DNA of 64,000 bases from Alloascoidea hylecoeti (lineage: Eukaryota): positions 558,001 through 622,000 of the forward strand of contig BCKZ01000007.1 of assembly GCA_001600815.1 (NCBI GenBank). The letters are read 5' to 3'. The notes beneath the pieces were generated by a model. It had not been told where the DNA came from, ran no database searches, and saw only the letters and a list, made by a program, of their open reading frames with translations. The translations under genes were made by a program, and so were the position numbers. Numbering within the stretch: the stretch's first letter is position 1; every line of letters starts with the position of its first letter. Positions 7,780-42,458 of this stretch are shown piece by piece.

Positions 7780-8710
7780 TAAAAGTAAACTAGAGGTAGA
7801 ATAACCTCTATCAAATTGAGTTGGATCAATTATATTTTGTCTCTCACCACTTTCTTCCTTTGTTGTTCCTATCGCAAGCACTTTCCCATCTTCTACATTT
7901 TTCATCAATTATTCTGTGGTATTAAGTTTGGATGGTTGATTTTCCTTAATTAGTTGTAAAAATATAAATTTAATAAATGCATATTATTGTTGAAAGAACG
8001 TGCATCTGAGAATTGACCTATGGACATAATAAAAATTGAATACTCATTAAACCATCTCCATCTCTTCTTATTTGATTTCTTGTAGCTAATCTAACTGAGT
8101 TTTCTTATTAAATAGTGTGAATTTGTATGAACCTACAATGGTAGTTTCATTACTATCATTTCTTAAAGTAGGTAAATTTCCATTTTCATTTTCATTCTCA
8201 TTATCATCTCCATCAGTATCTTCTAGGGAGTGAGTGTACCATAAATATTTCTAATATCGATTTAACATTGGGAAATACAATCTTAGAAGATCCCATTTCA
8301 CCTTTTGATATCATCGCAAATCTACCATTTTGACCCTTTCATCATTATTTTTCCAATTGTGATTCCTTTTTTGTTGTTATTTAGCATAAATAATTATAGA
8401 TTCCGTTTTAATTTCTTCCCACATAATATCACCTTTTAAAATGATTTCTAATATAATTTTGAAATATTTAATCCATTAAATGAATCAATTGCATCTAAAT
8501 TATCAATATAAGTTTGAAATTTACATGTTTCTGTTATGATCTCATCTTGTATTGTTAATGTAGATAAGATAATCGAGCAATTGTTAAGCCTATTGTTTCA
8601 ACAAATGAGTTCAAGTCAATCGAGAAAGAAACTGGACCTTGTGTGCTTTGAGATACAGGCTGATTAAAAGTGTAAGAAGAGAATAGCAGTCTTTCCAATA
8701 CATGTAACCG
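7780..8710 (-). pseudogene. RAD17: Decayed 9-1-1 checkpoint clamp subunit gene (Rad1/Rec1 family; S. cerevisiae Rad17)
   Basis: Colinear fragments in shifting frames: LERLLFSSYTF, VSFSIDLNSFVETI, TIARLSY, LTIQDEIITETCKFQTY, LEIILKGD, SKGEMGSSKIVFPNVKSILEIF, SYKFTLFNK, SVRLATRNQIRRDGDGLMSIQFLL, AFIKFIFL; multiple frameshifts and stops. Confidence 0.75.
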
Positions 8711-8833
8711 GCTATTAAGCTTATAAAATCACATCAGTACCGCACGTGATGGACTAATTCGGCTGTATATGGGCATAGAAGCTGCTTAAGAGAACCTCGA
8801 TCTGGATATTAATTTTGGTATTCTCACGGAATT

Positions 8834-9607
8834 ATGATGAGTCCTAATAATAATTCAAAGCAGACAAATGAAAGTACAGTTGGAAACTCTTCATATAATC
8901 TTGAGTTCTTTCAATTGGAATCCATCAATATTAAAATTCACATCAGCGTTGCCTATTTAATTCTGGGATCTTCTGTGTTTTTGGCTTATAAGGTATACTC
9001 AAACTTCTTTTCTTTAGATTCCTCTAGAAGTATTAAGTCTACGGTTATACCTAGATCCAAAGGGTATATATCAAAGAAGATTTTTATAGAAAAATTGCAA
9101 TTGTTGTTAGCAAAGTATATTTTATTATAATTATTATAACTTTGTGTCTCTAATTTGATCTAACTTCTTTTTTACCTATTATTTTATGATTCGGGTATTC
9201 CCTTCCTCGAGATGTTACAGAATATTCGCTATTTGGTACTTATCTTAACTCCAGAGGTATCACTTGACGAATTCAGATCTTTCTATCGCGTCCCAGATAA
9301 AATGAACTATTAGCTTATTTCCTGTGATCAGTTTTATCAAATTCCTCGGAATATAAAACGAGAAAAATTCAATTTGGTGTTTTTACCAAACGATTTTGAT
9401 TATTTTAGATGGACGCCTGTTTCTATGAGAGGTAAGTTTATGAGTCTTGTTAAAATATTTACTTATATTCCAATTGATGTGATAACGCTGACTATTAAAT
9501 CAAAACTAATTCAAATGTATATAACATAACTTATAGACTTTATTGAGGTTATCGTTCGTTTGGATTCTGACCCCAAAAGAGAGATTCTTTCTTTTATGCC
9601 AGAATAG
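8834..9607 (+). pseudogene. Decayed PEX22-like peroxin gene with intron remnants
   Basis: N-terminal TM (VAYLILGSSVFLAYKVY), then after a frameshift RKIAIVVSK, DSGIPFLEMLQNIRYLVLILTPEVSLDE, KMNY*LISCDQ (in-frame TAG 9311-9313), FIEVIVRLD; intron-like GTATAT..CTAAC and GTAAGT..GCTGAC..TAG. Confidence 0.5.
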
Positions 9608-10658
9608 TATTAAATAAACATCAGATCTATTCATTTCAGCGTTATAAATAGTTATATATACTTAAATTTATATAAAGTATTAGTGTAAGTTATATTGCCA
9701 TTTTTTTATATAACAAACATTAAAACTATGATCAATATTAATTATCATTATAAATAATGTTTTTGGCTTGAGCTTACAATTGTAGTAGCTATAGCTATAT
9801 AGTAGAATACCACAACTAGCAGAGTACATTCAGATATAACAAAGCTAAATTCCCCATATTCAATCAAGTGAGAAATAAATACTGGTTTAGTTCCCAGGCC
9901 TCACATGATAGAAAAATATTAAAACGCTGATTTCTCAAAAACTGTTCTATAGATCGTTGAAAAAATTATTAAAGGTTTTGACTAGAGGAATTTAAGAGTT
10001 GGGAAAAATCAGGAGAAAAGCAAAAAAGATGAAAAAAAGTTAAGTTTTCTGATTTATAATTAAGCAATGAGCCTAGGAAAAACACCATAGTATTATATAA
10101 TATCATTTATTTATGTGGAGAAAATCTAGCAAAAACATATATACAAAGTCATTGTAAGTAAGATGATTATTAATTATAATTAATACACTACTGGTAATAT
10201 TAAAGTCGCCAGCTTTTATGATTAACTTCAAAATTCAATCAATCAGCAGATAACCTTATAATTATATCCTTAGAATTATAACTTTTGTGTCTAGCTCTGA
10301 TGATCGCTTTATTATATCCCCGGCCCCTCAATTGCGAAAGCTATTAATATTAATTCGTTTTGGACGTGATGTACCCCAACCGCAGAAGTTTCTATGGGCT
10401 GATTATATTGCACAATATTGTAATTGAAATTGATATTTTCTAGACGAGTAATACATATTACTCTGGAAATTTCTATGTTCTAAAATGGGTTCCAGATAAA
10501 TTTAATGGTTGTATCATTGAACAATCATTCACACTTCACAGTAATTTCATAGCTATATATAGTCATTATTAATTCTGATTGACATCACTCATATGAAAAA
10601 ATATAAGCTTAAGAAAAGTATCAATATTTCAAATTCAAATAAGTTATATATGAATCCT

Positions 10659-11150
10659 TTAAAGGGGTAAAAAGAAGGCCGGGTCAAGTCTAAAGTTGCA
10701 ATGGACACCACTACAAAGACATCCCTATAGCTAATAATGTTAACCTTCCGAAAAGGCATGTATAGAGATAGTAGATACTTAATAATTACTTATAGACTGA
10801 CTGAGAGTCATACTTGCCTTATAATATACGTAAATACGATATAAGTGTAGTCAGTGGTCACACACCTTTAATTAATTACAATTTTGTATACCATATTATC
10901 CATGGCCGGGAAACAATAAGGACCATTTGTTTATAATTAATTTTATATTAAATGTTTAAATATATAAAAAAGTACAATAATGAATTAAATCGTAATTATT
11001 GCTTCCATCACCAATTCCGGACCCCGAAAAAAGGGTTTCTCGAAGGCACCTATATGTAGTTAGGGTTATCTTATCATCAGTGATATTTGCGGTCGATATA
11101 GATGTTATTGTTATATAAAACACAACCAAATGCAATAGATATAAAATCAT
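10659..11150 (-). pseudogene. Possible disrupted gene for a small secreted Cys-rich protein
   Basis: Signal-peptide-like start MILYLLHLVVFYITITSIST; downstream GPYCFP...*RCVTT...Q, then intron 10813-10725 (GTATGA..GTTAAC..TAG) into GCLCSGVHCNFRLDPAFFLPL*; in-frame TAA at 10868-10870. Confidence 0.25.
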
Positions 11151-11444
11151 AAACTAGCATAAGAAATTTAAAGGGATAATTTGAAATATTATAGAGATAT
11201 CCATTATAATAAACTTTATATAGAAGTTAAGGTAAAAGGCATCGGATGGATCTCATGAAAAGACAGCATCGATATCATTCGCTTATAATGTATAAAATAA
11301 TAACATAATTATTAATTACATATATAAAACTACATGCTCTGGCGGTATTTTTTGTGATTGCCTGCTGGTGTTTCGTATCTTAAGCTTCATCCTATATATT
11401 TCACCTCACAGCTTGCAATCAGTAAACTTTTGGTCTTGAGAGCC

Positions 11445-13086
11445 ATGACGATAGAGTTTAGGTATGCTTCTTACAAAGGTTTACTTGGTACTTATCGAAA
11501 GATAAACAGATTTTAACCTGTTAATAATTATTGTTGACCTTTATTTTAGTCCTCCAGCTACAAAATTACCACAGTGTCAGGATCCATTCTTGCTTGACCC
11601 CCCATCTTTTTATCCAGGCCAGGTTACAATAAAACACTGGCAGTTAAGAAATCTTATTCATAACTCAACAGTTAATCCGAACAGTGTGATATACCCGACA
11701 AACAATATAATCCATTCTATCGATTTGAAAACAGCAAAAACATCATTAGTATGCGAGTATGGATTTGCTCCTAAATGTATAACAGAAACTGAAGGGTTCA
11801 TTGCAGCTGGTGGTATTGTTGATACAACCTGCTCTTCAACGCCTCCAGATTTCTACCCAACCCTTGATGGAACAGATGGAAAGGGTCTTTTTTCGATTTA
11901 TAACCAAAGAACAGATGATTTAGTTTCAGTAAAGCTTGGGGCGTTGATAAACAATTGTGTTTCATTATTTAGTACCGGATCAAACCATCTGAAGTCAATT
12001 GTTTGTAATAACGATAAAAATTTATATTTCTTGGATGTTCTTCCTTCTGGGATAATATTAGATCATAAAATTAAATGTTCAGTATCTCTAAATAATGCTG
12101 AATTATCACCGGACAGAAAGACATTAATATGTTCTGGTGATTCAAAGGGAATTTATGTATTTCATGATGATTTTAAAACTAATCATCCTGAAGATTATCA
12201 GATTGAAACAGATGCATCAGCTGGATTTTCTACTACGTTTCATCCATCTGGAGTGATGTTTGCTACTGCTTTCCAAAGTGGTAAGATTTTACTATATGAT
12301 ACTCGATACTTAAAAAACCCTTTAAAATCTTTAAAATCAACGAGATGTGAACAACAAAATGGATCTTTTAGAGCCGCTAAATTTATTCCAGGCCCAGAAG
12401 ATTTCCTCGCATTTTCTGAACATTTAGGAAGGGTTCATATTGTTGATACCAGAAACTTTGATAATCATCAGGTTGTGCTATTCCCGACAAATTATGGAAT
12501 GCCCGATGTTACACCAGTATTCCCAGGTACAGATAATGAACTGGGCCTTCCCCTAAATGATAAAGTTTACGATTATGAACCGGTTATTCAAAAGTTCGAT
12601 GAAATTAAGAAGAATTTCAGAACTTCTATAAGCCAACCATTAATGTCACTTGAGCGACGTCGTTTATCAGCCAATATCAACACGGATACTCATGAAGTGT
12701 CATTGGGTCCTCACGGTACCTTAGTTTTTACCACGGATAATCGTCGAACATCCCATGACAATTTATCGCCAACTAGGAGAAATAGCTCTACTTCGAATAA
12801 CTATAGATTATGGGTAGAACATTTAAATCAGTCACCTAGAGGGTCACTTTCTAGTGGTGATATACGACATGGTGGTTCTGATGAATCTTTACAAAATGTT
12901 AATTCAACTCCATCAATATCCGATAGAACATCTGATGCCTATGAATTCTCCAATGTCGATATTAGCGGTCTTTGTTGGTCTGGCTATGATGGAGGTTCTT
13001 TGATAATTGGTACTGATAAAGGTATCACGAGATGGAAAATTGACTCTTGGGCAAGACGTTGTTTTGGCAGTTGTGCCTACTTATGA
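11445..13086 (+). CDS. GID11: DUF2415/WD40 protein, YLR149C/Gid11-like; exons 11445-11461 and 11550-13086
   Basis: Spliced start MTIEFSPP; motifs TIKHWQLRNLI, SIVCNND, FSEHLGRVHIVDTRNF, ISGLCWS and C-terminal WARRCF. Confidence 0.75.
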
Positions 13087-13264
13087 TGTTACTGTATAGG
13101 TAACGTTTCCAAAAAAAATATTAATTATTTGTTATACATATCTTCAATTTGTTAATAATTTGTTTATTTGTTTATTTGAGTATTTTTTCATTGGTCATTT
13201 GTCATTTGGTTTTTTGATAATGGAAGTTAATGATTAGTTTTATAACTACTTTTAGTTCTTTTGC

Positions 13265-13283
13265 ATATATATATATATATATA
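13265..13283. repeat. (AT)n microsatellite
   Basis: ATATATATATATATATATA run. Confidence 0.85.
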
Positions 13284-13426
13284 TTGATATATATTGATAG
13301 TAATACATTTCATCTTGCTCATTATTTATAATTATTCGGATGTGTAAATTCGGGAACAGGTGCAGAAAACTTTAGAATTATGCTAAAATTTGATTTCAAA
13401 TTCTCTAACATACAATACAGGAATAT

Positions 13427-15187
13427 ATGATACAAAATTCAATTAAGTGTATTCAACGAGTGAATAATCCGAAATTGAGATGTATTCTACTCACGGGTCT
13501 AAATTTTTCGACACTATATTCTAAATCACAATCAAGATTTATGTGCAGAGATACCATTCCTCAAAGTCGACCTATAAGTACTCATTCCTATAGATTAAAT
13601 CTTAATAATGATTCGACTTCCAATGACGAAAAACTTTCAAATATTCCAATGGAACTCAGAAGAGAAGCTTTGTCTAAAGAGTTGGAGTATTATAATGACC
13701 TAATTACAGAGTGTATGTCCTTACAGAAGAGGCCCGATGATACTGGTATTCAGATGTTATGGAAATCTATTTCAAAAATAATAAGACAATACGAAAAACT
13801 TAAATATGCAAAAGTTTTATCAAAGGCAAATGTCGCACATTTTGTTGAATGCTGTCACAGATTTGTAAGACTGAGACGGCAGGTACAAACCTTCAAAAAA
13901 ATGAAACCGGATCCTGCAAATGATTTCACAGTTCCCATGATGGAATCCATTGGGAAAGTTGTATTATCTTTAGGTAAAGATCTAGCTGATGGAACGACTA
14001 CCATCTCTCCATTTGGAGCTATGCACTTAATAACAATGATAGTTGAAATGAATCAATATCCACATGCTATTAAAATATGGGAAGATGTTATGGAAAGCGA
14101 AGGAGTTAATGTTGAAGCTTTTTCCTCTGAAAAGGTCCTAGGTGCTCTGATCAATGCCATGACGGCATCAGATGTACCTCTAAAAGAAATCGAACGCATT
14201 TATGACTACAGACAAGCTGATGATATTGGGATTGAGGCTGCCATGATCACAGCATATCTCAAAGCCGGTGAAGATTCAACAGCTCTTACAAAGTATGAAA
14301 ATTTTATTAAATTATATCCAAAAGAAGAAAGTTATTTGTCGAGAGTACATTCATCCTTTGTTGCATATTCAAAAAGTGCACCTATTGCAGAGACATTTTT
14401 TAATGAAGCAACTTCACGAAAACTGCCTTATGAAGTTGTTCTCCGAGTCAATTTTGTTGCTCAATTTCTCCGTAATATATGGGTGGATACAAATGATTTT
14501 CCAAAAGTATTCGATTATTGGAAGAAATATTTAGTATATCTGGGGAAAACTAACTTAGGAATATTGAGTGCAATAAATAAAGCATTTATTGAAATTTATT
14601 TCCAGCGATATCCTTCCCAATCAGTCGAAGCTCTAGAATATCTAAAACAAATCATCAGATCATATCATGATATTCGCAAAACCACAGATGAACCCTTCGT
14701 TAATAACATTCTATCCCTTGCAACCATATGGAAAGATGCCGAAATCATCAATGCTTTGGCCGAATCCTATTCTATTTTCCACATACCTCGAACCGCTGTA
14801 TCATATCGTATAATGCTGAACGCATTTGCATATATTCCTGTCACCGAAGAAAGAATATTAAATGAATGGAACAATCTTATTTGTTGCGTTGATGAAGATA
14901 GAACTAAAATCTTGACATGGCTAGATTTCTCGGCGCTAATACAGGCAACTTTGGCGAATCCAGCACTTGATGAATCCGGATCAAGAGCTAGATTATTTTT
15001 AAAATTATGGAAACTATATAATAACTATATCTCGGATGATAGGACTCGTTATAATCTTAGTGTGATGGCGATTCGTCACCAACCTAGTATTGAATATCAT
15101 TTGACGCATGATTCTATTCTTGAAAAGTTGGATGTCAGTGATATTGAAGTTCCCCATCTTCACACTATGAAACGAAATTTATTATGA
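13427..15187 (+). CDS. RMD9: Mitochondrial PPR-type RNA-binding protein, Rmd9-like
   Basis: Basic presequence-like N-terminus; KKMKPD...SPFGAMHLIT...AIKIW...EKVLGAL segment resembles Rmd9; helical repeats. Confidence 0.65.
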   Translation: MIQNSIKCIQRVNNPKLRCILLTGLNFSTLYSKSQSRFMCRDTIPQSRPISTHSYRLNLNNDSTSNDEKLSNIPMELRREALSKELEYYNDLITECMSLQKRPDDTGIQMLWKSISKIIRQYEKLKYAKVLSKANVAHFVECCHRFVRLRRQVQTFKKMKPDPANDFTVPMMESIGKVVLSLGKDLADGTTTISPFGAMHLITMIVEMNQYPHAIKIWEDVMESEGVNVEAFSSEKVLGALINAMTASDVPLKEIERIYDYRQADDIGIEAAMITAYLKAGEDSTALTKYENFIKLYPKEESYLSRVHSSFVAYSKSAPIAETFFNEATSRKLPYEVVLRVNFVAQFLRNIWVDTNDFPKVFDYWKKYLVYLGKTNLGILSAINKAFIEIYFQRYPSQSVEALEYLKQIIRSYHDIRKTTDEPFVNNILSLATIWKDAEIINALAESYSIFHIPRTAVSYRIMLNAFAYIPVTEERILNEWNNLICCVDEDRTKILTWLDFSALIQATLANPALDESGSRARLFLKLWKLYNNYISDDRTRYNLSVMAIRHQPSIEYHLTHDSILEKLDVSDIEVPHLHTMKRNLL

Positions 15188-15411
15188 TTATATGTATATA
15201 GATGTTCTCTAAAAAAGAACTTATATTTTCAGATACTGTCAATTTTATTTATATAACTTGTTAATAGAGACGGTGCTCATTACTTTTAATATCACATTTT
15301 TTAGCATTGGGTATAATATAGAAATTTAAATTATAATGTTCCCACATAACTTCAAACTTATTAATACCACCAATTTATTTCTTTTAAAATCAGCTATAAA
15401 GTATATTAAAA

Positions 15412-16359
15412 ATGTCTCATGTTTTCTACCAAGGGAAAACTATAGATTTAAATGATAATGAATCAAGGGCAGATTATTTATTAGAGACAGAACTAGCAAA
15501 GGTCTTTGTGGACCACAAATCTGAAAGGATGAAAATTCATACGATCAATTTTGTAACTGATGACGATGGTTTTAAGCCAACACAAACAGCGATAATGATG
15601 AAAACTTTTTCTAGAAGAGATAATTCAATCGAAAATGGTTTAAATGATAATGATGCAAACATCGATATAAATAAAAACAATGAAACCCACATGAAAGCAA
15701 AATCTATAATCCCAATGTTTGTAAGAACACAAAAGCAAACAACTCTTCCTTATTGCTATAAAGAAAATATAAATGGTAAATCGGTTAATAATTCAAGGAG
15801 TAAAAGCTATAGATTGGAATTAATAAATCTGAATAATGAACCAACAAATGGAGTTCATTTGGAAGGGATCCACTCAAACACCACCCGCAACAAGTCAAAT
15901 AATGCAAATACTTCATTATATACAGCTACAAAAGACCAGACTATTAAAAAAAGTGATAACTTTTCTAAGCATTGTTGTCACTTGTATTCAGAGACTGGAC
16001 ATATTTTGCAGCGGTACTGCGTTCAGCCCTTCAAATTGATCTATCACGGCATCTTTTCTAAATCTAACGAGAGCGATGGAGACCAATCAGACCAACCATT
16101 ATTAAGATATAATTTAACAGTAAGAGTTACTGATCGTGATATTGAACGAACATCTATTAAATCACAAAATGTCCACCTTTCATCCTTACGTCGCTATAGA
16201 TATCAATTGCAATTAAACCATATTCGAAATTTCCTGAGAGATACTACAGAAACTGTTATTTCGGTATTTCGAAGAGAAATTGTCATATCTAATATTAATA
16301 TTAATATATTTGGCAAAAGATCTACTCAGGGTATTCCTAACGATAATGATTATGTTTGA
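15412..16359 (+). CDS. Hypothetical protein (315 aa, no recognised domain)
   Basis: Long ORF with AAAAATG start context in an AT-rich genome. Confidence 0.6.
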   Translation: MSHVFYQGKTIDLNDNESRADYLLETELAKVFVDHKSERMKIHTINFVTDDDGFKPTQTAIMMKTFSRRDNSIENGLNDNDANIDINKNNETHMKAKSIIPMFVRTQKQTTLPYCYKENINGKSVNNSRSKSYRLELINLNNEPTNGVHLEGIHSNTTRNKSNNANTSLYTATKDQTIKKSDNFSKHCCHLYSETGHILQRYCVQPFKLIYHGIFSKSNESDGDQSDQPLLRYNLTVRVTDRDIERTSIKSQNVHLSSLRRYRYQLQLNHIRNFLRDTTETVISVFRREIVISNININIFGKRSTQGIPNDNDYV

Positions 16360-16532
16360 AGTTGAGCTTGTGTTTTTTTTTCGCTATAAATTTATATTCC
16401 AATATAACTGTACCATAATAACTATAAATTTCTATTATGAATGTGTAATTTTTTCTTCCTTTTTTTATTCTCAAGATCTGAAAATATTCTAAATGAGTAA
16501 TTAAAGATGCTGAACGCCCCGAAATATTGATG

Positions 16533-17096
16533 CTAATGTTTGAAATGATTATACCAAGTAGAACATTTTACGTGGTCTCCCTGAAGTTGGTTTCTTCTCC
16601 CACAAACTGGACATTCATAATGACCACCACTAGTTTTTTCAAGTGGTTCATCTAATACCAGATCGTCAATATTGATTCGTGGTATATGTAGTGCTCTTAA
16701 TCTCACCGCCAGTCTATTCCATGACTCTATCACTTTTCTAGCCTGTCTATCTGCGTCGTGGCGATAACGTGTGTTAGAATATCTTCCCCAAATTATATTT
16801 TGTGCTACTTTTGATATATTTACCAGTGCCTGAATAAAGTTACGAGTTTTTATATTAGAAATAACCTTCTTTTTGAGTGTAAAAGATAATGGAACAAGCG
16901 AGGCTAATAATCCGTCGGCAGAAAGAAATATATCAGTATAGAAGAGTTTCAGAAGTTCCTCTGAACGAAGAACATGCATGGGTTTGGAGGTGGAGGCGGG
17001 TTGAGAGCCCATAGCCGGACCAAGCAAGGAATGACTATTCTGGGTTGGGATGGGATCTGAGCTTACAAAGTCACCAAAGTCATCAAATTCGGACAT
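16533..17096 (-). CDS. Fungal hypothetical protein with N-terminal DDFGDF motif and C-terminal CxxC...H..C cluster
   Basis: MSEFDDFGDFVS; ADRQARKVIESW; ECPVCG...GDHVKCSTWY. Confidence 0.7.
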   Translation of the reverse strand: MSEFDDFGDFVSSDPIPTQNSHSLLGPAMGSQPASTSKPMHVLRSEELLKLFYTDIFLSADGLLASLVPLSFTLKKKVISNIKTRNFIQALVNISKVAQNIIWGRYSNTRYRHDADRQARKVIESWNRLAVRLRALHIPRINIDDLVLDEPLEKTSGGHYECPVCGRRNQLQGDHVKCSTWYNHFKH

Positions 17097-17251
17097 GTTG
17101 TCTAAAGATAAATGATAATATTAATAGTTAGGTGTGGTCTATATGTTAATGGAGGTGATGAATATTAATGTCGGTAGTAATGAGTACAACCGCATATTTA
17201 AACTTTTGCGATTGATCTTTTAAACTTAGCACCCCGACAAACATATCTTCA

Positions 17252-18822
17252 ATGATAAGAAAAGCATATTGTAGATACAGGTATATGGGCATTTCTATAA
17301 AGGAAATATTTACTGAAGCATTTTCACAAAGCACTAGGCATGTGCTCCTTAAGAACCGTATAAGCCGTTCGACCGTTTCTTCGCAACCTTTCTCTATTAT
17401 TTCACGATTTTTCACCGCAAATTCAACCACTTTCCAACGAAACATTGAAGATTTTGGAAGCAATAAAACCCCATTTCCAAAAAAGCAAAGTTTTGAGATT
17501 AGATCTTGTGGGTCGCTGAGTAGCCGAAGTTCCCCGCAGTATACTAGTATGTTTCTCTGTATATTCATGAGTCCCAATTGAAACTTTCTTCTAACTATTC
17601 TAGCCACCCCAAACCATAATCTTCATTCAATGATATGGGACAATAAATTGAATAACATTTTTATAATTAAAAAACCATTCATACCACATGTCAAAGATGC
17701 CCTCATTGAGTTTATTATGTAAGATCTACATTTTCCGAATATTTCATTTACCCCATACATAACTAACATCTATGCAGGCATGTTCGAGATAAATACCCCA
17801 AACTAAACATTATTGTTGAAGAAGATACAGCTACAGAACTTGAAAATGAATTTGAAACCCGGCAAACTTCCGACATGGAAAGTGAGGATATCAGAACAAT
17901 TGTATATACTGGAAAGCCCGAACAAATTGCTAAAAAGACAGATTTAATGGTAACCTTTGGCGGAGATGGTACAATATTACATGCTACATCTTTATTTTCA
18001 CAAGAGTCTGTACCACCAATCCTAAGTTTTTCTCTTGGGACTTTGGGGTTTTTATTACCTTATGATTTTCAAGAATATAAAACTGCTTTCTCTAATGTTG
18101 TAACATCAAGAGCAAGAGTCATGAATCGAATGCGATTGCAATGCCATGTATATCAAAAGGAACTTAAGGAATCAACCCATCAATCTTCACACACTGATCA
18201 ATATCATCATGACGTAAATGAAATATTTGCACTTAATACATCTGATTCAGATGTGTTGAGTTCAACTAACGTAACACGAGCGTTATCGGAATTCGCAATG
18301 AATGATATTATATTACATAGAGGATCGCAACCCCATCTTACGACATTGGACATATATGTTGATGGTATGTTATTAACAAGAACAATTGGTGATGGAGTAG
18401 CCATTTCAACACCCACTGGGTCAACAGCATATTCTTTATCAGCTGGCGGATCAATTGTTCATCCATTAGTACCCTGTATATTATTAACACCAATTTGTCC
18501 TCGGTCACTAAGTTTCCGGCCGTTGATATTACCAGCCCGATCCAAAATAGATATTAAGGTAGCCCATTGTTCTAGAAATACGGGGGCTATTTTGAGCATC
18601 GATGGTGTTACTCAGGGAAAACTGACTACCGGGGATGAAATAAATGTGAATAGCGAAAGTAATATTGTTTCTAAAGCTAAAACGGCTAAAACCGTTGATG
18701 CAGACAATAGCGGTGGTATTTGGTGCGTTTCCAGATCCGATAATGATTGGACCGGGGGTATTAACGAACTTTTAGGCTTCAACTCATCATTTGGAACGAA
18801 GATGAAGCACAAAAACTCATGA
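17252..18822 (+). CDS. POS5: Mitochondrial NADH kinase; exons 17252-17546, 17604-17718, 17778-18822 (start may be 17285)
   Basis: Two GT-AG introns with CTAAC join LHSMIW..NIFIIKKP to TFGGDGTILH, SLGTLGFL, AMND, STPTGSTAYSLSAGGSIVHP, PICPRSLSFRPLILP, LLGFNSSF. Confidence 0.92.
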
Positions 18823-18977
18823 CCTGGATATATATATTTTTATTATATATTATTTTATTTATTTATTTCATTAACATTAATATGTGAGTATCATAGTATT
18901 GTATGCGGATGGGTGTTAAAAAAGAAGCGAAAAATGCCAACTCATGCTTACAACCTCTTTTCTTGTTGTACTCTAAA

Positions 18978-21858: not shown

Positions 21859-23481
21859 ATGTCTCGTTCACTGCGGATAAAGCATTATACTCCTGAGAAC
21901 GACGTCAAACGGTGTTGGATTTGTTTTGGAACTAGTGATGAACCGCCTCCACTCACCAGTAGGAATGGCCATGATTGGGTGAACCCTTGTCAGTGTTCAT
22001 TGGTCGCACATCGTGTTTGTCTACTCGAGTGGATAAACGATATCGAAACTCGAAATTCTTCCCTTCCAAACATCGACGATGATAACAATATCAATATTAC
22101 TCAAAGCAATTTACAACGATTTGTGGAACAGAAAGGTGACTCGAGTACAATTATTTATGGTGGGATTAAATGTCCACAATGTAAATCGCCTATCTACATT
22201 ACTATATCGAGTAGTAAGATTCTTAATTTTAGAAGGAAAATGGAGTCAACCATGAAAGATGGAATTAAATTAAGCGCTATAATAACTGCGTTTGGTGGTA
22301 CTGTTTCCTTAAGCTATTGGACCTTTTGTATTATTGGAATCAACATCATTAATAAGATGTGTCCTGAAGAAATGGCACATCGAATTTTAGGAGTCACTGA
22401 AAGCTTGCGAGTTTCAAATAGTAGCACAGCATCACAACTATCGTCTGATCGCAAGGTTGCCCAATTAGATGGTAAAACAATAGGCTTGTTGCCTGCCATT
22501 CCGTTCTATATGATGCTATTACGGAAGGGCATTGCATTTTCTCCAAATGAGTTATGTTTAGCTACTATCCCACTGTTACTTTATGAAAAATTAAGTGATA
22601 TTCATCCTAAAATGATATGGAAAATTGGGGGTGTAAAACTAGCCTGTACATTAGTTCCATTTTTAAGAATATGTTATAATTTATGGTATGAAGGAGTGAT
22701 TAACTATTTATACTATAGACTATCCGTACAGATTCGACCACATCTTAAGGATGATATGGAATGTCTAAATTCATTAGATGTTGACAGAAATGGAATACAT
22801 GTTATTTTAAACCAAGAAATAAATGATAATGGTCACGAAGAAAATAGAACACAAGAACATAATGCAAATGATATTCATCATCGGCCCGAAGCAAACGAGC
22901 AACGGCTAGGAAATACTCTATTTTCTAAAATTTGGAGCATGTTTTCTGATAGTTTCAAATGGATGATTAGACAAGAAAAAATGCTGCAATGGGATTTCAT
23001 CCCTAAGACTGGTTATTATTCAAGATTATTTCATCGTGATTATTCAGAAATATTTCAAAGGAAGAATATTTTACTTCAGTGGATTACAACATTAATTTGG
23101 CCATATGTAGGCTCTTTTGTTGGTTCCTTTCTAGTATCGAAATTAAAACTCCCTTCGTTTCTTCAAAATAGTAGATTCTTCCAACTATTTAAAAGAAGGT
23201 TGTTTTATATTCATGATAAAAATTATAAATTTGTTGGAAATATTATTGGATGTTGTGTTGTTGTGATGATAAAGGACTTGTTTAATCTCTACAGTGCTTA
23301 TAAAAAAGTTAATCAAATTAAACAGAGGAAGATATTACAATACGGTTCAAAAGAGTGGAAGATTATCAATGAATTAGGAAGAAAATCAAATACAAGAACA
23401 ATTCCTTCCCAAAGACCTGTAATTCAAGAAAACAGAAGAAATTTTCAAGTTGGATATATGAACGTTCATGTTGATTTTTAA
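21859..23481 (+). CDS. RING-CH (C4HC3) membrane E3 ubiquitin ligase, MARCH5-like
   Basis: CWIC...WVNPCQCSLVAHRVCLLEWI...CPQCK, followed by TM segments and GNIIGCCVVVMIKDLF. Confidence 0.8.
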   Translation: MSRSLRIKHYTPENDVKRCWICFGTSDEPPPLTSRNGHDWVNPCQCSLVAHRVCLLEWINDIETRNSSLPNIDDDNNINITQSNLQRFVEQKGDSSTIIYGGIKCPQCKSPIYITISSSKILNFRRKMESTMKDGIKLSAIITAFGGTVSLSYWTFCIIGINIINKMCPEEMAHRILGVTESLRVSNSSTASQLSSDRKVAQLDGKTIGLLPAIPFYMMLLRKGIAFSPNELCLATIPLLLYEKLSDIHPKMIWKIGGVKLACTLVPFLRICYNLWYEGVINYLYYRLSVQIRPHLKDDMECLNSLDVDRNGIHVILNQEINDNGHEENRTQEHNANDIHHRPEANEQRLGNTLFSKIWSMFSDSFKWMIRQEKMLQWDFIPKTGYYSRLFHRDYSEIFQRKNILLQWITTLIWPYVGSFVGSFLVSKLKLPSFLQNSRFFQLFKRRLFYIHDKNYKFVGNIIGCCVVVMIKDLFNLYSAYKKVNQIKQRKILQYGSKEWKIINELGRKSNTRTIPSQRPVIQENRRNFQVGYMNVHVDF

Positions 23482-24233: not shown

Positions 24234-24316
24234 TGACAACCCTGGGATTCGAACCCAGGCCTCCGAAGAGATCAGGACCTTAACCTGACGCCTTAGACCA
24301 ACTCGGCCAGATTGCC
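24234..24316 (-). tRNA. tRNA-Leu(AAG), intronless, long variable arm
   Basis: GGCAATCTGGCCGAGTTGGTCTAAGGCGTCAGGTTAAGGTCCTGATCTCTTCGGAGGCCTGGGTTCGAATCCCAGGGTTGTCA folds as a cloverleaf; A and B boxes; downstream T-run terminator. Confidence 0.97.
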
Positions 24317-28349: not shown

Positions 28350-28434
28350 TTTTTATCACTTTGTATCTGAAAAAATAAAAATTGGAAATTTTTGGAGGTT
28401 TACTTAAACCCGAAAACCCAAGATTCAGAAATTG

Positions 28435-28480: not shown

Positions 28481-28524
28481 TATTATTATCATACATCTTT
28501 TATACTCGTATTATTCTAGTCAAA

Positions 28525-29998: not shown

Positions 29999-30175
29999 AT
30001 AGACTTGTGATATAATAACATTTATTTTGATGTCGTTTTATATATTCTATTCTAAGCTGTGGTTATGATTTAAGAAAAATATTTATGCAGCACATTAAAT
30101 TTAAGCTTGTAAAATAATTGGAAAGATTTATTTTCTTTTGTGTATGACCAATACTCTATAATTGAATATCATAAC

Positions 30176-30790: not shown

Positions 30791-30907
30791 CCTTGATGTT
30801 ACAGATGCTATTGGACCTTTTAAAGCTTTAAGATGGAGAATACACCCACACACACACACGTTTATTGCTGAAACCTTCGAGAATACCGTATATATATCAA
30901 CTAAATC

Positions 30908-33503: not shown

Positions 33504-33817
33504 AAAACATTAATCTAATTATTTCTTTTATTTAATTTTTATAAAATACTTTCGTAATTACTGTATGAATTTGGTGCTATAATTATAAATCAAATTATGA
33601 ACAATAAGAACCTTCGTAAAGAGAACAATATTTTATCGTAAAATTACAGGTCTATATAATATAGACCTTTGCAAAGCATTGCAAATTAGCATATTCACAA
33701 CTTCTGTTCTAAAAGATATAATATACATCATTCTAAATCTATTCATTATAAACATTGAGTCTTATTTCTTTTTCCTCTCAAGTTATCAAAAACTCGCTTT
33801 CAACTTCCATAAATATT

Positions 33818-36157
33818 TTATTCTAATTTTTCACTATCATCCTCATCGACCAATGAATCTTCAATGAATTCAATAGCCTCTTCATAGCGTTCTTCTACAA
33901 TTCCATCAATTCCATCTCTGTCACTTCGTATCACACGTCCAAATTTTCTTCGGGGCTTCTTAGCATTACCGTTGGCAGTTGCGCTAGATGAATGAGTTGT
34001 GCCGTTAGAATGAACCTCAACACCCCAACATGGATGGTTAACCGGTGTGAAAACTAAAGAGTTATGATAATACCAATCAATAATGTATTCATCAATCAAA
34101 GGCACGATGGCTTTTAATGGACCTTTCCTGACAAATGATATACTGGCTCTTACAATGTCTCGGGTTTCACGGTGTCCCAATAAATGAACAATACCAACAT
34201 AAGCATCACCAATTCCAATAAAAATTACTTTTTTAACAGCAAAATATTGAATATAATTATCCCAAACATATAAAAGAAGTTCCTGTGCTGCAACACCGGC
34301 ATTATAAGAATAACATTCATCACCTGTTATTGTTGATGGAATAGAAATATCGATATATCCGAATCCTTTGGACCTAGACCAATCTATAAGTTTAACCGTA
34401 GGATCAACAATAAGTGATTCAAATGGTTTTATTGCACCCGTTAATGGATCTGTGTGTGCCCAAACTTCATTTGGATCATGAATAGTAATTACAATGGTTT
34501 GTGCATTATAAATCCCCGGGGAAGCTAATATTTGATCTTCAAATGAGGATGATTTTCGTTCCAATAGCACTGGAAGATTTGTGAATTGATATTTGTTATA
34601 TAATAAAGAAGATTGATGAGACCGTATAACATCATCCAATTGATAATTCTTTTCAACCTCTGCATTAACATTAACAGATTCAAATCCAGGTTTCATACAT
34701 TTCCAGAAAGAAGATTGTTGTTTTTGAACTTCATAGATAACCTCCACAACATCAGATCGTGGGAGTTTTGTTTTCAATTCACCAGGTGCTTCTCCTAATA
34801 GGACTTGAGTCATGGCTAGTGCAGATATCGCAGTCGCTTCAATGTTGTAACCACCTTCTAAAATCGCACAAACGGCACCTTTTGCTAAACTTTTCATCAT
34901 ATGTGTCATATGACCATAAGCAGCAGGAGATAGATGACAACCACCGACTAAATCCTTATCAGCAGCATCAAACCCGGCTGAAATAATGATGAAATCAGGA
35001 TCAAATTCATAACATATGGGCATAACAACCTTTTCAAAAGCATAAATATAGTCACCATCTTGTAATGCACCATTACTCCATGGAATATTAATATTAAAAC
35101 CTCTTCCTTTACCCTCGCCAACTTGATCCAAATCACCAGCTTTTGTTCCTGGATAAAATTTACCTAAATCATATCTATGCAAAGAGATATATAGAACTCT
35201 TGGGTCATCCCAAAACACCTTTTGAGTTCCATTTCCATGATGAACATCCCAATCTAAAATTAATATTTTTCTAACAGATTCAGGATATTCATTTAATATA
35301 ACTTGAGCGGCAACCGAAACATTTGCAAACAGACAAAATCCGCCCGGAACATCAGGTTCAGCATGATGACCCGGAGGTCTTACGATAGCAAAAGCATTTT
35401 TAACCTTACCTTCAACAACGGCTTTACAAGCATCAATAGACCCACCACATGCCAGCTTAGCTCCGAATGCAGATTCTCGGTTGAAATAAATAGAATCACC
35501 TTTTTCAGTGGTGTCTTTTAATTGTTCGGATGTCATTGAACGTGTGGACTCAATAAAGTTAAGATGCTCTTCTGTGTGAACCGTTAATATTTCATCTTTT
35601 GTAGCTTCTCTTGCTGGGATTTTCAAAAAATAATCACCAATATCATCGACACCGCTTAAGGTAGGATCAGTTATAAGCCCATTTTCCGCCAATAGTTTGT
35701 AGATTCGATAGATACGTCTGGGGTCTTCGGGATGGGGGTCTATGTATTCATAATAAGAAGCAAACATCTTAGCATGATATCTCATTCGAACATCATACAA
35801 CAATCCGGTTTTTAATGGTGTGTAGGTTAACTTGGGAGACTGAATTGGAACTATGATGGGAGCATTTGTTGGATCAGATGCTACTGTTGAATCGTGGATA
35901 TCGGCAGATGGTGACCTTTTTCTTTTCGTATCATCTAGTAACGTTTCTAAACTCGGAACATTACCTTCTATGACACCTTCCATTTCTGTAATCAGCGATG
36001 CGTTTCCATTACCATTAGTTGTTGGATCTCCTGAGGATATGAGTTCAGAAACATTGAGAGTATCTAAGTCTGGTTTTATGGTTGATTGGTGACCTACTAG
36101 CTCTGTAGTTTGAACTATATTTTCAGCATCTTCCTGAACATTTGCAGAATTCTCCAT
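33818..36157 (-). CDS. HDA1: Class II histone deacetylase with Arb2-like C-terminal domain
   Basis: HPEDPRRIYRIY, RPPGHHAEP, GGFCLF, DWDVHHGNGTQ, SAGFDAA, LEGGY, KKPRRKFGRV. Confidence 0.97.
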   Translation of the reverse strand: MENSANVQEDAENIVQTTELVGHQSTIKPDLDTLNVSELISSGDPTTNGNGNASLITEMEGVIEGNVPSLETLLDDTKRKRSPSADIHDSTVASDPTNAPIIVPIQSPKLTYTPLKTGLLYDVRMRYHAKMFASYYEYIDPHPEDPRRIYRIYKLLAENGLITDPTLSGVDDIGDYFLKIPAREATKDEILTVHTEEHLNFIESTRSMTSEQLKDTTEKGDSIYFNRESAFGAKLACGGSIDACKAVVEGKVKNAFAIVRPPGHHAEPDVPGGFCLFANVSVAAQVILNEYPESVRKILILDWDVHHGNGTQKVFWDDPRVLYISLHRYDLGKFYPGTKAGDLDQVGEGKGRGFNINIPWSNGALQDGDYIYAFEKVVMPICYEFDPDFIIISAGFDAADKDLVGGCHLSPAAYGHMTHMMKSLAKGAVCAILEGGYNIEATAISALAMTQVLLGEAPGELKTKLPRSDVVEVIYEVQKQQSSFWKCMKPGFESVNVNAEVEKNYQLDDVIRSHQSSLLYNKYQFTNLPVLLERKSSSFEDQILASPGIYNAQTIVITIHDPNEVWAHTDPLTGAIKPFESLIVDPTVKLIDWSRSKGFGYIDISIPSTITGDECYSYNAGVAAQELLLYVWDNYIQYFAVKKVIFIGIGDAYVGIVHLLGHRETRDIVRASISFVRKGPLKAIVPLIDEYIIDWYYHNSLVFTPVNHPCWGVEVHSNGTTHSSSATANGNAKKPRRKFGRVIRSDRDGIDGIVEERYEEAIEFIEDSLVDEDDSEKLE

Positions 36158-36449
36158 TTTGTATAATATTTATATTTTCTTCCTCGTCAAACTACTCAAA
36201 ATCGCCTGTGGTGTATGTTCATATATGTAATAATTTACCTCACTATTTTCAGATGATTCCGAAATCTTTCAAAAACAGACTTTAATTAATTACTGTGGGT
36301 TTACTGAAATCGGATGCATTAGCCCACCCAACTATTATACATCCGGGTAAATTTTATTTCACTGGGTAAAACAAAAATAATAAAAAATGAAAAGTAAAAA
36401 ATATTTCTATCAATAATTTATAAAGCTTTAGGCTCAATTATTTAGAAAA

Positions 36450-37787
36450 ATGAGTTTATATTATGAAGCAGTCAAATTTTTAGATATAAATCCAAAGAAG
36501 GGCTCCCTTCAATCCAGGATATTTGGATCAGAACTCAAATCGGATCCAAAACAGATGTTTGCTCTTGTTTCTTCAACTCTTAAATACAAAACTTACTTAA
36601 CCAAAATCATTAAAAACTCAGATCTTTTAAAAAATGAAAGAATGTTAAAACCAAATATGGCACTTCTTCTTGTACATGACCTACTCTTTACAAAAAGTAA
36701 AAGGATAAATATGGGTAAAACGCCGTTAAAAGAAGCCGTCCTAAGACATAAAACGAGGTTAAATGGTGAATTTATAAAACTAAAACTAAAATATAAAGTA
36801 CGAAGTTTCGATGAATTGATTGAAATTGATGGCCCCCCAATACGATGGTTTCGTATAAATACGATTAAAATCACCGTTGATAAAGCAATGGAAGATTTAA
36901 ACAAACAGTTTACAAAAATTGATAAAATTAATGATTTTAGTAAAGGTATCCCATTAGGGAAAATTTATCATGATAAACATATACCAAATCTTTTTGGTAT
37001 AAATCCAAATGAATCAATTACAAAAACTACTCTGTATAAACGAGGAGAAATAATCATTCAAGACCGTGCTTCATGTTTTCCTGCTCATATTTTAAATCCG
37101 AAGTCTGGTGATAAAGTAATTGATGCTTGTGCTGCACCAGGAAATAAAACAACTCATCTAGCTGCTCATGTTAATAATACACCTAGTTCTGTTTTTGCAT
37201 TTGAAAAGGATAAAGCTAGAAGTGATATTTTAAAGATGATGTCTAAAAAGGCGGGTGCTAGTAAATGTATTGAAGTGACAGTTGGCGATTTTACGCAAAG
37301 TAACCCTGATGATTATAATGAAGTTGTTGGGTTGGTGGTTGATCCATCATGTTCAGGGTCTGGAATCTTTGGTAGAGCATATGAAGAACAAGATGAGAGT
37401 AAAGCAGAAACTTATAGTAAAGAACGATTAGCAAAATTAGCTGGATTTCAGTTTTCTATAATGAAACATGCATTAAGTTTTCCAGCAGCTGAAAAAGTTG
37501 TTTATTCTACATGTTCTATTAGTGCTGAAGAAAATGAGCAGGTGGTTAGAAGACTATTAGAAGATCAGATGATTCAAGGTTTAGGGTGGAGATTAAGTGA
37601 AAAAGAAAATGTAATTCCTAGCTGGCATCGAAGAGGTTTTGTTAAGGAGTTTAAAGGACTTGATAATGATGCAAAACTAGCTGCTGGATGTATCAGAGCA
37701 TTACCAAAGGTTGATGGAGGAATCGGCTTTTTTGCTGCAGCATTTGAACGAGATGCTCCAGAGATAATCGATGATGTTATGAATTAA
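36450..37787 (+). CDS. RCM1: 25S rRNA m5C methyltransferase (NSUN5 family)
   Basis: MSLYYEA, RWFRINTIK, IIIQDRASCFPA, DACAAPGNKTTH, VDPSCSGSG, VYSTCS..EENE, GGIGFF. Confidence 0.93.
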   Translation: MSLYYEAVKFLDINPKKGSLQSRIFGSELKSDPKQMFALVSSTLKYKTYLTKIIKNSDLLKNERMLKPNMALLLVHDLLFTKSKRINMGKTPLKEAVLRHKTRLNGEFIKLKLKYKVRSFDELIEIDGPPIRWFRINTIKITVDKAMEDLNKQFTKIDKINDFSKGIPLGKIYHDKHIPNLFGINPNESITKTTLYKRGEIIIQDRASCFPAHILNPKSGDKVIDACAAPGNKTTHLAAHVNNTPSSVFAFEKDKARSDILKMMSKKAGASKCIEVTVGDFTQSNPDDYNEVVGLVVDPSCSGSGIFGRAYEEQDESKAETYSKERLAKLAGFQFSIMKHALSFPAAEKVVYSTCSISAEENEQVVRRLLEDQMIQGLGWRLSEKENVIPSWHRRGFVKEFKGLDNDAKLAAGCIRALPKVDGGIGFFAAAFERDAPEIIDDVMN

Positions 37788-37954
37788 GTTAATTGTATTA
37801 GATAGTAATTATAAATCTCTACGTGTACAGTTGATAAACATTGATGGATCGTTTATCTTAAGGGGTAAAAATAACACAGCTTTTATTTGTCAATCAATCA
37901 TTTCTAATAGTTTTTTTTTTATATAACTTCTAATGTTCATAAGTAACAGTGAAA

Positions 37955-39332
<1,378 letters not shown>

Positions 39333-39438
39333 TTTTAGAATGTCTAATTGATTTTTTGTTTTTTGTGGAGGAGGATTAAATCAGTATGCAGGAGAAAACT
39401 ATACTATGTCATATTTAATTATTTATAGTCATCGGAAT

Positions 39439-40332
39439 ATGGAAAAATGCCTGAAATTCATTGCTTCTCATGTTGAAGATGGCAGCCCAACAGATATAAA
39501 GCTAGATACTAGATACTAGATACAGGTACTGCCGATATGTTTAATAAGTTTGGGTTGGAATCTGCCACCAAAGACTTCATTGGCACATTCAAATGGTTTT
39601 ACTTAATTTCAGACATTCTGACTATAATTATCGGACCCTCGGATGGGCTATTACCGGTGTGACCCGTTCATATGCAGGGATAAAGAGCAACTTCGGGTGT
39701 CAAACCCGTCGGAAAATTAGTTGCGAGAGGGTCCGATAATTATAGTCAGAATGTAAATGGAAATCACTGTATAATTTATGGTGGATGGCAAAGCAGCTAG
39801 TGCTGGACCTGCTGGTATTAAATCTGGTTCTGAATATGCAGATTCTCCAATAATCATTGGTGATACAACTGATTTCCCCTATAAAGTCCAACAAACTGGT
39901 AAAAAAGGTAATTAAATCAATCTCTTTATTAAAAATTGTTATTAAAAATTGAAGGTTAGTAGGTTACTGATAATTTAGATTCTGCTCAAATTATCATTCC
40001 ACGAATCCATAGTCAATAGTTAATTAACCGTCTGTCTTCAAAATTTTTATTTAGCTATTTCTTAAACAATAATTGAAACAAATAAACCTGAAAAAGATTT
40101 AGAACTAGCTGTTAGATTAATTCTTGAATATGAAGACCTATTTACTGGTATTTATGATCTATTAGAACCAATTGAAGATAGTATAATAGATGATGTTTTT
40201 ATTTCAAAAAGTTATGATACCTCAAGTCATTTTGGATCAACTATTGATGATGTTAAGGATTTATATAAAAGAATATATAGGTATGAAGACCTTGTTTTAC
40301 TGAAGAGGGAAGGAGTTGAAGAAGAGGCTTGA
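39439..40332 (+). pseudogene. GDI1: 5'-truncated, decayed Rab GDP-dissociation inhibitor gene interrupted by a MITE
   Basis: Fragments EKCLKFIASHVEDGSPT, MFNKFGLESATKDFIG, IIGD..FPYKVQQTGKKVI, DSAQIIIP, TIIETNKPEKDLE, FTGIYDLLEPIED..DVFISKSYDTSSHFGSTIDDVKDLYKRI..DLVL..EEEA*; frameshifts, stops and deletions. Confidence 0.88.
39614..39753. mobile_element. 140-bp MITE with perfect 27-bp terminal inverted repeats (Tc1/mariner-like ends)
   Basis: CATTCTGACTATAATTATCGGACCCTC (39614-39640) and its exact reverse complement (39727-39753); TA follows the right end, GA precedes the left end. Confidence 0.85.
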
Positions 40333-41186
40333 TTTAAATAGTTAAAGTAAAAAGTACTGGTATTACATTCTATATGATTATAGTTACATCTAATTCATTG
40401 CAACTACAATATTATATTAATGATTATATTATCTTTTAATCATATATATAATAAATACTTTATGTTAGATAAACAGTTGGTTTGAAATACATGTTAATTT
40501 GTTTTTAATTTTAAAGGGCAACAAAACCTTTTTAAGTCTTATAATTAACTACTTTATATGATTAATCGATTGGTCTACGGTTTTAACCGCCATTATTAAC
40601 ATATCAATCAAGATAATGAGATTATTTTTGGTTTTAATACGTAATAATAATACAGTGATCCGTAAATAGGTAGTAATACTATAGCTAGGTATAGCTCTAA
40701 AGATAATAAAAAAAATTATAATTGTACATTCTATATATGATAGTACATATACTACTAAGAATATTTAGCAGTACACAATAGAAGGAATTAGAATACCATA
40801 ACATTGATGCCCAGTTACATTCGTTCGTTTACTATCACATACTCTACGACCACCTAACAAATCAGCACATGTTCAAAATATACTGAAATTTTCAATATAA
40901 TTAGGAATATGCAATCGATGTAATGGAATATCAATGAAGTTCAAGATTGCTATTTTACATGTAATTGCTATAAACTCGATTATAATTATGGATATGGGTA
41001 GTGTTACTTGGCGTTAAAATTTCAACAATTATTATTTTTTATACCTTCTTGAGATTATGCATACAGGCATGGTATTTATGATGATGAGGAATTCTTTCAC
41101 TCGAGCTCCTTTTCTTTACTATTATTGCCAGTAATCAATACTATAATAAATATATCATATAACTATAAAAACCTCATTTGATTTCA

Positions 41187-41865
41187 GTGATTGATCAAGA
41201 TAAGAAGGCCGGACAAGGTTCAACACAACATACTAGAGGCAGTTTGAAAAAGTCAGCTACTGATGTTTTCAAATCAATTGTGAATTTTAAAAAAATCGAA
41301 ACAACTGACCGCTAGACAAAAACACCAGCCACTCTGAAGAAAAGTTAACATATCAAAATTCAAAAGCAGTTTTCACAATGATAGCAACAGTGTTGATTCA
41401 AAATGATCCAAAACAACCAAAAAAAAAAGGTCGAATCCTATAGTTTGTGATATAAAATTTACCCGTTGTGTTCACCCAATTAGTTTTCAAAAAGGAAGTA
41501 TTCTTACAATAGATCCTGTGGTACATTCAGCTTCAGTTAAAACTAATGCCGATAACAATTCATTAGCACTCCATGTAATTCAGCTAGAATATAAATTAAG
41601 AGACTCATCTTCTGATTATTTTAAATTACCTGACTCTTTAAATATGGATGAAGATTATGTGTATCAAAGATACACGATTACCAGAGCTAAAGACATTAAA
41701 AGAACTTATTTTATAGAAGATTATGAACAACATTCGTCAGTAAATTTTGGTTTAATTTTTGAAACGGAAGAGAACAAAAGATTGTTTAAATAAAATTATA
41801 GAAAGGAACAACTTTACAATGAAAATCGACGTAGAGGTACAATCTCTGAAAATTGGTTTTTTTGA
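41187..41865 (+). pseudogene. Degenerate coding-like segment of unknown family
   Basis: Long codon-like stretches (VIDQDKKAGQGST...; NPIVCDIKFTRCVHP...KRLFK*NYRKEQLY...WFF*) broken by single stops and A-run frameshifts. Confidence 0.35.
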
Positions 41866-42458
41866 TCCTGCAGCTGTGGTGTACCGGTATAAGCCCTGAA
41901 TTCATGAATAGACATGTCTCTAATTTAATATACCGTATTAAATGGAATTCAATTTCTACACACTATCGATATCTCAAAACTGATTCTTCATTCCACAGTA
42001 AAATGAACAGTAAAAATAGCACCTTTTTCAGGCATAGAACCAATTTATACCGGTATACAATGTATTTTAATTATGGGTGAAAATTGCACAGTCCCTGGAA
42101 AAAGTAGCACGGTCCGTAGATTAACCCTTTACGTACAGTACCAAATATCAGAGCTTTCCACTCCGGACAGAAGACAAAAAAAAATTATAGTCATCGGAAT
42201 AGGAGAAAATACTTGAATTTGTCAGACCTTTTTTACAAGGCAGCATGCTGCCTATAAGTGGATATGCAACTAATCGAAATACATACAAATATGGGTAACG
42301 AATTCTCTTTACTTATAACTGTCGCTTTATCCAAATGAAATTTATCATACAGTCACGTGAATACATGTCACATGACCACAAAATCATCGACCAATTAGAC
42401 TCTTCTTTTTTTCATTACTCCCATACAATTCAGTTACATTTTACCCTTCAATACAAAA

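Follow-up and report, generated by a model that had tools for sequence, protein, structure and literature searches.

The window analysed here is a stretch of 64,000 nucleotides from contig BCKZ01000007.1 of the yeast Alloascoidea hylecoeti, and all positions given below are counted from its first letter. It is AT-rich (about 32% G+C), and two of its intergenic spacers contain the broken remains of housekeeping genes: a RAD17 relic and a PEX22-like relic in the first, and a GDI1 relic, accompanied by repeat debris, in the second (Table 1). A reading made from the letters alone had already named relics of these three genes, together with unassigned dead open reading frames (ORFs), and had taken them as the footprint of a large-scale duplication or of gene capture. 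Homology tests upheld the RAD17 and GDI1 relics, while the PEX22 label is weak. The relics are probably ordinary non-processed pseudogenes that arose by at least two separate, small duplications at the DNA level, of different age.

Table 1. Positions of the relics and associated features in the two spacers, and of the gene that follows the second spacer
Feature	Position	Strand	Basis or description
RAD17/Rad1-family pseudogene	7777..8701	-	Pfam Rad1, tblastn, frameshift-aware alignment, three-frame view
PEX22-like pseudogene	8834-9606	+	exons 8834-9114, 9212-9430 and 9537-9606 (inferred model)
Duplicated block	7709..9656		RAD17 and PEX22-like relics, head to head; second, diverged copy in reads
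GDI1 pseudogene	39421-40332	+	Pfam, Gdi1 structures, tblastn, GDI profile, tree
142-bp element	39613-39754		perfect 28-nt terminal inverted repeats (E 7e-8); G+C-richer core
Family X, decayed dispersed repeat or orphan family	41184..41875	+	tblastn
36-nt direct repeat	42185-42220	+	copy of 39423-39458 (GDI codons 135-146), 83% identical
NDUF_B12 complex I subunit gene	42459-42703		two exons; Pfam NDUF_B12, E 5.8e-20 (ORF 42536-42700)

Broken genes in two spacers

All 86 stop-to-stop frames of at least 36 amino acids (aa) in the two gaps were scanned against Pfam. Only four matched below an E value of 0.01, namely two pieces of Rad1, the C-terminus of a GDI, and NDUF_B12, the last being the gene that begins at 42459 after the second gap, just as the first exon of a DUF2415/WD40 gene begins at 11446 after the first. 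No intact gene was found within the two blocks, and the stretches at 9.66-11.45 kb and 40.33-41.18 kb gave no recognisable Pfam match in frames of this length. For a control, we scanned 150 of the 160 ORFs of at least 36 aa in 12 other gaps of the window (15.7 kb), omitting the 10 at the window ends. These gaps yielded small real genes or exons (a glutaredoxin, L-PSP, Tim10 and the 5' exons of an XPG/RAD27-like gene) and two further weak Pfam matches that are probably spurious, and no broken housekeeping gene was found among them. Set against these clean gaps, the matches show that the relics are real and that they are concentrated in the two spacers.

The Rad1 matches lie in two minus-strand ORF pieces (8216-8338, E 9e-5, and 8558-8728, E 0.0075). 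A search with one of these pieces returned a single protein, P0059, which has 364 aa and matches Pfam Rad1 with an E value of 3.3e-45. The relic aligns to residues 9-48 and 94-364 of this protein: the residue 9-48 block is 85% identical, and a frameshift-aware alignment of 8558-7777 gives 83% identity over 254 codons. Six frameshift steps, two in-frame stops and a number of codon gaps, including one of 6 and one of 31 codons, separate the relic from P0059, and an N-terminal exon was not found in the approximately 130 bp that remain up to the neighbouring ATG. An intact gene split by introns was considered for this strand and rejected; it offers only three canonical intron candidates, none of which connects the pieces, and the three-frame view presents direct frame changes and stops, so the pseudogene reading holds. 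The metagenome scan with P0059 found no relative. The relic also carries a short low-complexity tract coding for acidic residues and asparagine (8173-8213), which draws contigs with a summed depth of about 4,800 in sequencing run X1 and at which short-read assemblies break.

The PEX22-like relic has two introns with good signals (9115-9211, GTATAT..CTAAC; 9431-9536, GTAAGT..CTAAT..TAG) and its disabling lesions are a frameshift near 9037-9075 and an in-frame TAG at 9311-9313. With its N-terminal hydrophobic segment it reads as the gene of a small membrane-anchored protein. Peroxin-22 was the only Pfam family returned for the read-through of exon 2, with an E value of 0.13 and a score of 12.5 bits where the cut-off is 26, and therefore PEX22 may be regarded as a plausible name for this relic that lies below significance. 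Searches of the Protein Data Bank with two pieces of the relic gave chance-level matches only, and a search of the ESM Atlas with the unaltered 71-aa frame gave no usable match. The 98-aa first ORF has the same length in another assembly (P0060, 99% identity), and the only relative found for it in the range of 57-184 aa was the ORF itself. A second, collinear copy of the PEX22-like gene is nevertheless present in the reads, on one contig of 2,349 nt.

In the second spacer, ORF 40066-40329 matches Pfam GDI (E 1.4e-18) and the structures of S. cerevisiae Gdi1 (E 1.4e-17), and a profile made from 43 GDI sequences picks out a collinear series of pieces over 39352-40329, corresponding to profile positions 124-441. 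When the 88-aa C-terminal frame was used as the query, 56 GDIs matched; P0001, an intact protein of 443 aa, led with 74% identity, and the next reached 60%. The relic corresponds to residues 134-200 and approximately 263-443 of P0001, residues 1-133 and approximately 201-262 being missing. Its 5' part is 55% identical to P0001 over 67 codons and its 3' part 63% identical over 173 codons, the latter with three stops and two frameshift steps; overall, the relic is disabled by four frameshift steps, at least three in-frame stops and the 5' truncation. A quick maximum-likelihood tree with 48 rows groups the relic with P0001 as its sister (SH-aLRT 98); the relic has a branch of 2.12 and P0001 one of 0, so that all of the change falls on the relic. 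This places the duplication within the lineage of P0001. No A-rich tail was found within about 250 bp after the GDI stop. P0001 covers the full length of a GDI within one called protein. The parent is therefore probably free of introns, and for GDI the loss of introns is uninformative.

The 142-bp element sits inside the GDI relic, at the spot of the missing codons ~201-262, and does not enclose the relic. No target-site duplication of this element was visible in the sequence; further copies were not found in the window, and its 28-nt arm had no match in the metagenome contigs. Downstream of the relic lies family X, which accounts for the part of the unassigned dead ORFs that could be explained. 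Its 128-aa frame (41407-41790) has four non-self relatives with 54-64% identity (P0062-P0065), so that the family has at least four other ORF-bearing copies, all on NCBI or Logan contigs of 12-30 kb. By tblastn the similarity is collinear across three reading frames, and so the whole stretch behaves as a decayed dispersed repeat; no Pfam family was found for it, and nothing recognisable was found in the rest of the supposed dead ORFs. The N-terminal half of GDI was sought at 41.8-42.2 kb and the candidate rejected, its score of 48 falling within the shuffle range of 29-50 and the profile failing to see it; the stretch proved to be family X.

Source and age of the copied DNA

The region 7700-9600 occurs in two runs of one organism, each with about 25 Mb of contigs, in one run of another strain and in a wood-decay metagenome. 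The relic block is fixed in the two strains and in the population sampled by the metagenome. We aligned the contigs of three runs (X1, X4 and X3) to 7200-11500 at 80% likeness, which is the limit for all of the flank comparisons below. A second copy of the RAD17/PEX22-like block was found in all three runs at a depth equal to that of the exact copy (in X1, 57-60 versus 59-63). Its contigs match 7709/7723-8139, 8114-8446 and 9494-9656, with short pieces between, and are collinear with the window; in X1 records 2, 3 and 8 they carry 86 mismatches in 913 positions (9.4%) and many indels. On either side the likeness stops: 7200-7708 and 9657-11500 are represented by the exact copy only, the latter being single-copy in the reads. 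The duplicated block is therefore about 1.95 kb long and has sharp edges, approximately 65 and 50 bp beyond the stop codons of the two genes.

Two observations connect this second copy with an intact gene and with copying as DNA. An 18-nt insertion behind 8416 in the second copy encodes ALKDLE on the minus strand, a sequence found in P0059 and absent from the relic, which indicates that P0059 is encoded in the same organism. In addition, matches of the parental copy lie in or beside the PEX22-like introns (9118-9149 and 9494-9656). Since introns and flanks are included, the block was copied as DNA; its PEX22 introns, having been kept, exclude an origin by retroposition. In the two parental contigs (15,568 and 2,349 nt), likeness to the window is limited to 7723-8139 and 9494-9656, and the contigs continue for 15 kb and 1.7 kb without resembling its flanks. 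That the relics are dead duplicates of genes with intact copies elsewhere, as the sequence-only reading had supposed, is thus confirmed for RAD17 by reads from the same organism; for the PEX22-like gene the second copy is seen, and for GDI1 the intact copy would be P0001.

To compare the two relics we used the minimum number of nucleotide changes per aligned codon needed to reach the residue of the parent. This amounted to 0.185 for RAD17, and to 0.486 and 0.70 for the 3' and 5' parts of GDI respectively. Per codon, divergence in the GDI relic is thus 2.6-3.8 times that in the RAD17 relic, even though of the two parents GDI1 evolves more slowly, and even the best-kept parts of the GDI relic, at 0.23-0.33, lie above RAD17. 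The comparison of relics with parents, in which a single peak had been expected from one event, thus gave two values, and this unequal divergence suggests that the two blocks differ in age.

We also looked for retained duplicates of the intact genes. Eight of the 13 window proteins were present in the protein collection by exact look-up, and none of the eight had a second-locus member in its 90% cluster, the clusters consisting of the proteins themselves or of same-locus entries from other assemblies. No sign of a recent genome-wide doubling was seen. With homology confined to 7709-9656, two divergence values and no second-locus relatives, the proposal of a single large-scale event, whether whole-genome duplication or hybridisation, found no support.

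Competing explanations

Taken together, the relics present the features of duplicated pseudogenes: homology to a known gene (weak for PEX22), disablements, an intact paralog in the case of RAD17 and presumably of GDI1, and, in the RAD17/PEX22-like block, introns and flanks copied along. We suggest that in one event a block of about 2 kb with a native, head-to-head pair of RAD17 and PEX22-like genes would have been copied into the spacer flanked by the glutamate-cysteine ligase gene and the WD40 (DUF2415) gene; being redundant, the copy would then have decayed, accumulating numerous small indels and about 9% substitutions. RAD17 and PEX22 presumably shared one ancestral neighbourhood in the Saccharomycetaceae (YOR368W...YOR371C / YAL056W-YAL055W), and this would fit a native gene pair. 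In another event, presumably the earlier one, the 3' two-thirds of GDI1 would have landed in the DNA directly before the LYS12-like gene, where decay went further; about 60 codons would later have been lost from it where the 142-bp inverted-repeat element now sits. In both events the copies would derive from working RAD17, PEX22-like and GDI1 genes at other loci of this genome. Repeat debris would make up what remains of the second spacer.

Several points weigh against this interpretation. The difference in age rests on two events, and the decay of GDI is uneven, its best parts being only about 1.5 times as diverged as RAD17. That P0001 belongs to the same genome as the GDI relic is inferred from its position as sister to the relic and from its contig of 10-20 kb, similar in size to that of P0059, and the comparison of the parental flanks would see only likeness of at least 80%. 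The 36-nt repeat, which is derived from GDI, is not explained by a simple duplication followed by decay. It matches its counterpart at the 5' edge of the relic with an E value of 4e-4 and lies 2,762 bp downstream of it, so that the two copies bracket the GDI relic and the repeat debris, and its local score of 45 compares with a maximum of 30 in 374 random pairs from the window; neither local alignment nor the GDI profile found other GDI similarity around it. Possible origins are a pseudogene that was duplicated and of which this stump is left, and terminal redundancy from a circular or tandem template. The contigs of the organism add up to about 25 Mb, which is large for a budding yeast, roughly twice the typical size, and would fit an old doubling. 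Finally, the relics are dense. In the survey by Lafontaine and Dujon (2010; PMC2876123), the yeast genomes have 38-230 pseudogenes each, and from its Table 1 we computed 0.2-0.9 per 64 kb, as compared with three relic genes in the 64 kb examined here. The earlier impression of an unusual density is therefore only mildly true.

Genome size is one of the arguments for seeing in the relics the last traces of a hybridisation or whole-genome duplication, after which all other duplicates would have been deleted from the sister regions. The copying of RAD17 and the PEX22-like gene together, as neighbours, and the existence of intact copies elsewhere would also agree with this. However, no sister region was seen, given that the flanks of the block have no counterpart in the parental contigs whereas the block itself is only 9.4% diverged; the two events compared differ 2.6-3.8-fold in divergence instead of sharing one age; and at 90% identity none of the eight proteins has a retained duplicate. 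Moreover, PMC2876123 traces only four pseudogenes to the known yeast whole-genome duplication. We therefore regard such an origin as decidedly improbable, although an old doubling worn down below 80% likeness would escape the flank comparison and the genome size leaves it a low probability. Errors of assembly or sequencing that mimic broken genes are extremely improbable; nothing specific speaks for them beyond the large number of frameshifts, while the relic contigs are exact in X1 and nearly identical (3-8 differences per piece) in the second strain and the metagenome, the truncated 98-aa ORF recurs in another assembly, and frames in the adjoining genes stay open for up to 1,028 aa. For the GDI relic alone, a processed pseudogene made by a LINE, in other words a 5'-truncated cDNA copy, could be imagined from the 5' truncation and from the fact that the relic reaches the natural stop codon. 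This seems very unlikely, since the A-rich tail is missing and no target duplication was found, and since, according to PMC2876123, truncation in yeast pseudogenes is as common at the 5' end as at the 3' end and is attributed to deletion of DNA. The marks of processing are thus lacking in both spacers, the PEX22-like introns having been kept and no A-run following the GDI stop.

The sequence-only reading had also raised an active process that copies gene segments into spacers, and this stays a low-probability possibility. Gene-sized chromosomal pieces, or circular or concatemeric copies, would be captured at breaks in spacers, possibly with the aid of a retroelement. The sharp edges of the RAD17/PEX22 block just past the stop codons would be expected from such a process, as would a GDI fragment that starts inside the gene and of which 36 nt recur downstream, as in a copy slightly longer than one unit of a circle or a tandem. 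These edges may partly reflect the 80% detection limit, though, and they bear neither a target-site duplication nor a terminal inverted repeat. The best direct match at 7709/9656 was of 15 nt with a score of 19, which is the 90th percentile of random AT-rich pairs, and the best inverted match between 7680-7750 and 9625-9695 scored 15, under the direct-repeat score; no inverted repeat brackets either block. Terminal repeats of an element, as in capture of the Pack-MULE or Helitron type, are accordingly absent from both. Only two blocks are known. For the 36-nt repeat, an origin as what is left of a pseudogene that was itself duplicated is just as conceivable; such duplications are known in yeasts, where PMC2876123 assigns a few pseudogenes to them. 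We therefore consider pasting-in of this kind unlikely. A more specific version, in which gene-sized DNA is pasted into spacers recurrently from circular or concatemeric intermediates, is quite unlikely; there a circle of 2.76 kb would have been copied slightly beyond one full unit to give the GDI insert, which if true would place GDI codons 135-146 (36 nt) at both ends of the insert, and the RAD17/PEX22 cassette would have been excised just beyond the 3' ends of both genes.

Surroundings, comparison with other yeasts and meaning

The genes in the window follow the order kinase, HDA1-like, NSUN5/RCM1-like, LYS12-like, the second gap, UTP25, MRP-S25 and ICE2. We take this order to resemble the S. 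cerevisiae YNL020-022/YIL090-095 neighbourhood, and this likeness would make the region a conserved chromosomal block and not a subtelomere. Introns in the window are of the yeast type (GTATGT/GTAAGT ... CTAAC/T ... YAG). The MRP-S25 gene has one, and the LYS12-like gene, a member of the Iso_dh family on the minus strand (37955-39332), has three in its first 530 bp (39247-39144, 39102-39042 and 38871-38805). The GDI relic begins 89 bp from the ATG of this gene, and as the DNA upstream of it is the relic, its promoter must overlap or lie in pseudogene DNA. The presence of the NDUF_B12 gene indicates that this yeast retains respiratory complex I. Complex I was lost in the Saccharomycetaceae, and the retained subunit places the organism outside that family.

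A tRNA-Leu(AAG) gene at 24234-24316 is the only tRNA, and the only RNA family match, in the window, and therefore the gaps are not explained by an RNA gene. Frames of at least 36 aa around it (23.5-25.3 kb) gave no Pfam match. Nearby, the window encodes an intact RING-variant protein of 540 aa (21859-23481), as does a Logan contig (P0070), whereas in the NCBI assembly a single contig has two shorter proteins in its place (P0071 and P0072, of 289 and 230 aa). This difference between strains or assemblies may be a frameshift allele.

Dujon and Louis (PMC5499181) call pseudogenes rare in yeasts, and Vakirlis et al. (PMC4937564) report relics at rearrangement breakpoints. More than half of the yeast pseudogenes in PMC2876123 come from species-specific duplication, many of them in segments with adjacent genes. 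The relics described here resemble these in having a functional paralog, in the copying of adjacent genes, and in showing frameshifts, stops and truncations without marks of retroposition; homologs of essential genes are included there as they are here. Those cases are mostly subtelomeric, however, whereas the present relics lie in internal spacers of a conserved block. The relics fit the commonest published class of yeast pseudogenes, being ordinary in kind and locally denser than average.

Other kinds of relics can be compared as well. The gene relics that Lafontaine and co-workers reportedly described in S. cerevisiae in 2004 are said to be highly degenerate intergenic remnants, seen by translated similarity. 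The relics in this window are likewise degenerate gene remnants in intergenic DNA, although the RAD17 relic, with 83% amino-acid identity and its parent found in the reads, is far younger than is typical of them. With the relics of the Saccharomycetaceae whole-genome duplication they share a dead copy and a partner surviving elsewhere; there, sister regions show interleaved conserved gene order and one age, while here the flanks are unmatched and the ages differ. Double-strand-break repair in yeast also captures fragments of chromosomal, mitochondrial or Ty cDNA origin. Such inserts span hundreds of bp to a few kb, lie at unrelated sites and have sharp edges and no transposon ends, and the present blocks may resemble them in this, although the captured pieces are usually shorter than 2 kb.

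For annotation, these results mean that the three stretches should be marked as RAD17, PEX22-like and GDI1 pseudogenes, being neither genes nor empty spacer, and that the organism should not be scored as lacking the functions of these genes or as doubled for them. Relics in the spacers of a yeast need not mean that its genome was doubled; the divergence between relic and parent, taken together with the extent of homology in the flanks, separates local copies from large-scale events. If many gene-sized inserts throughout the genome were to share edge features, this locus would be a first example of such pasting-in in budding yeasts.

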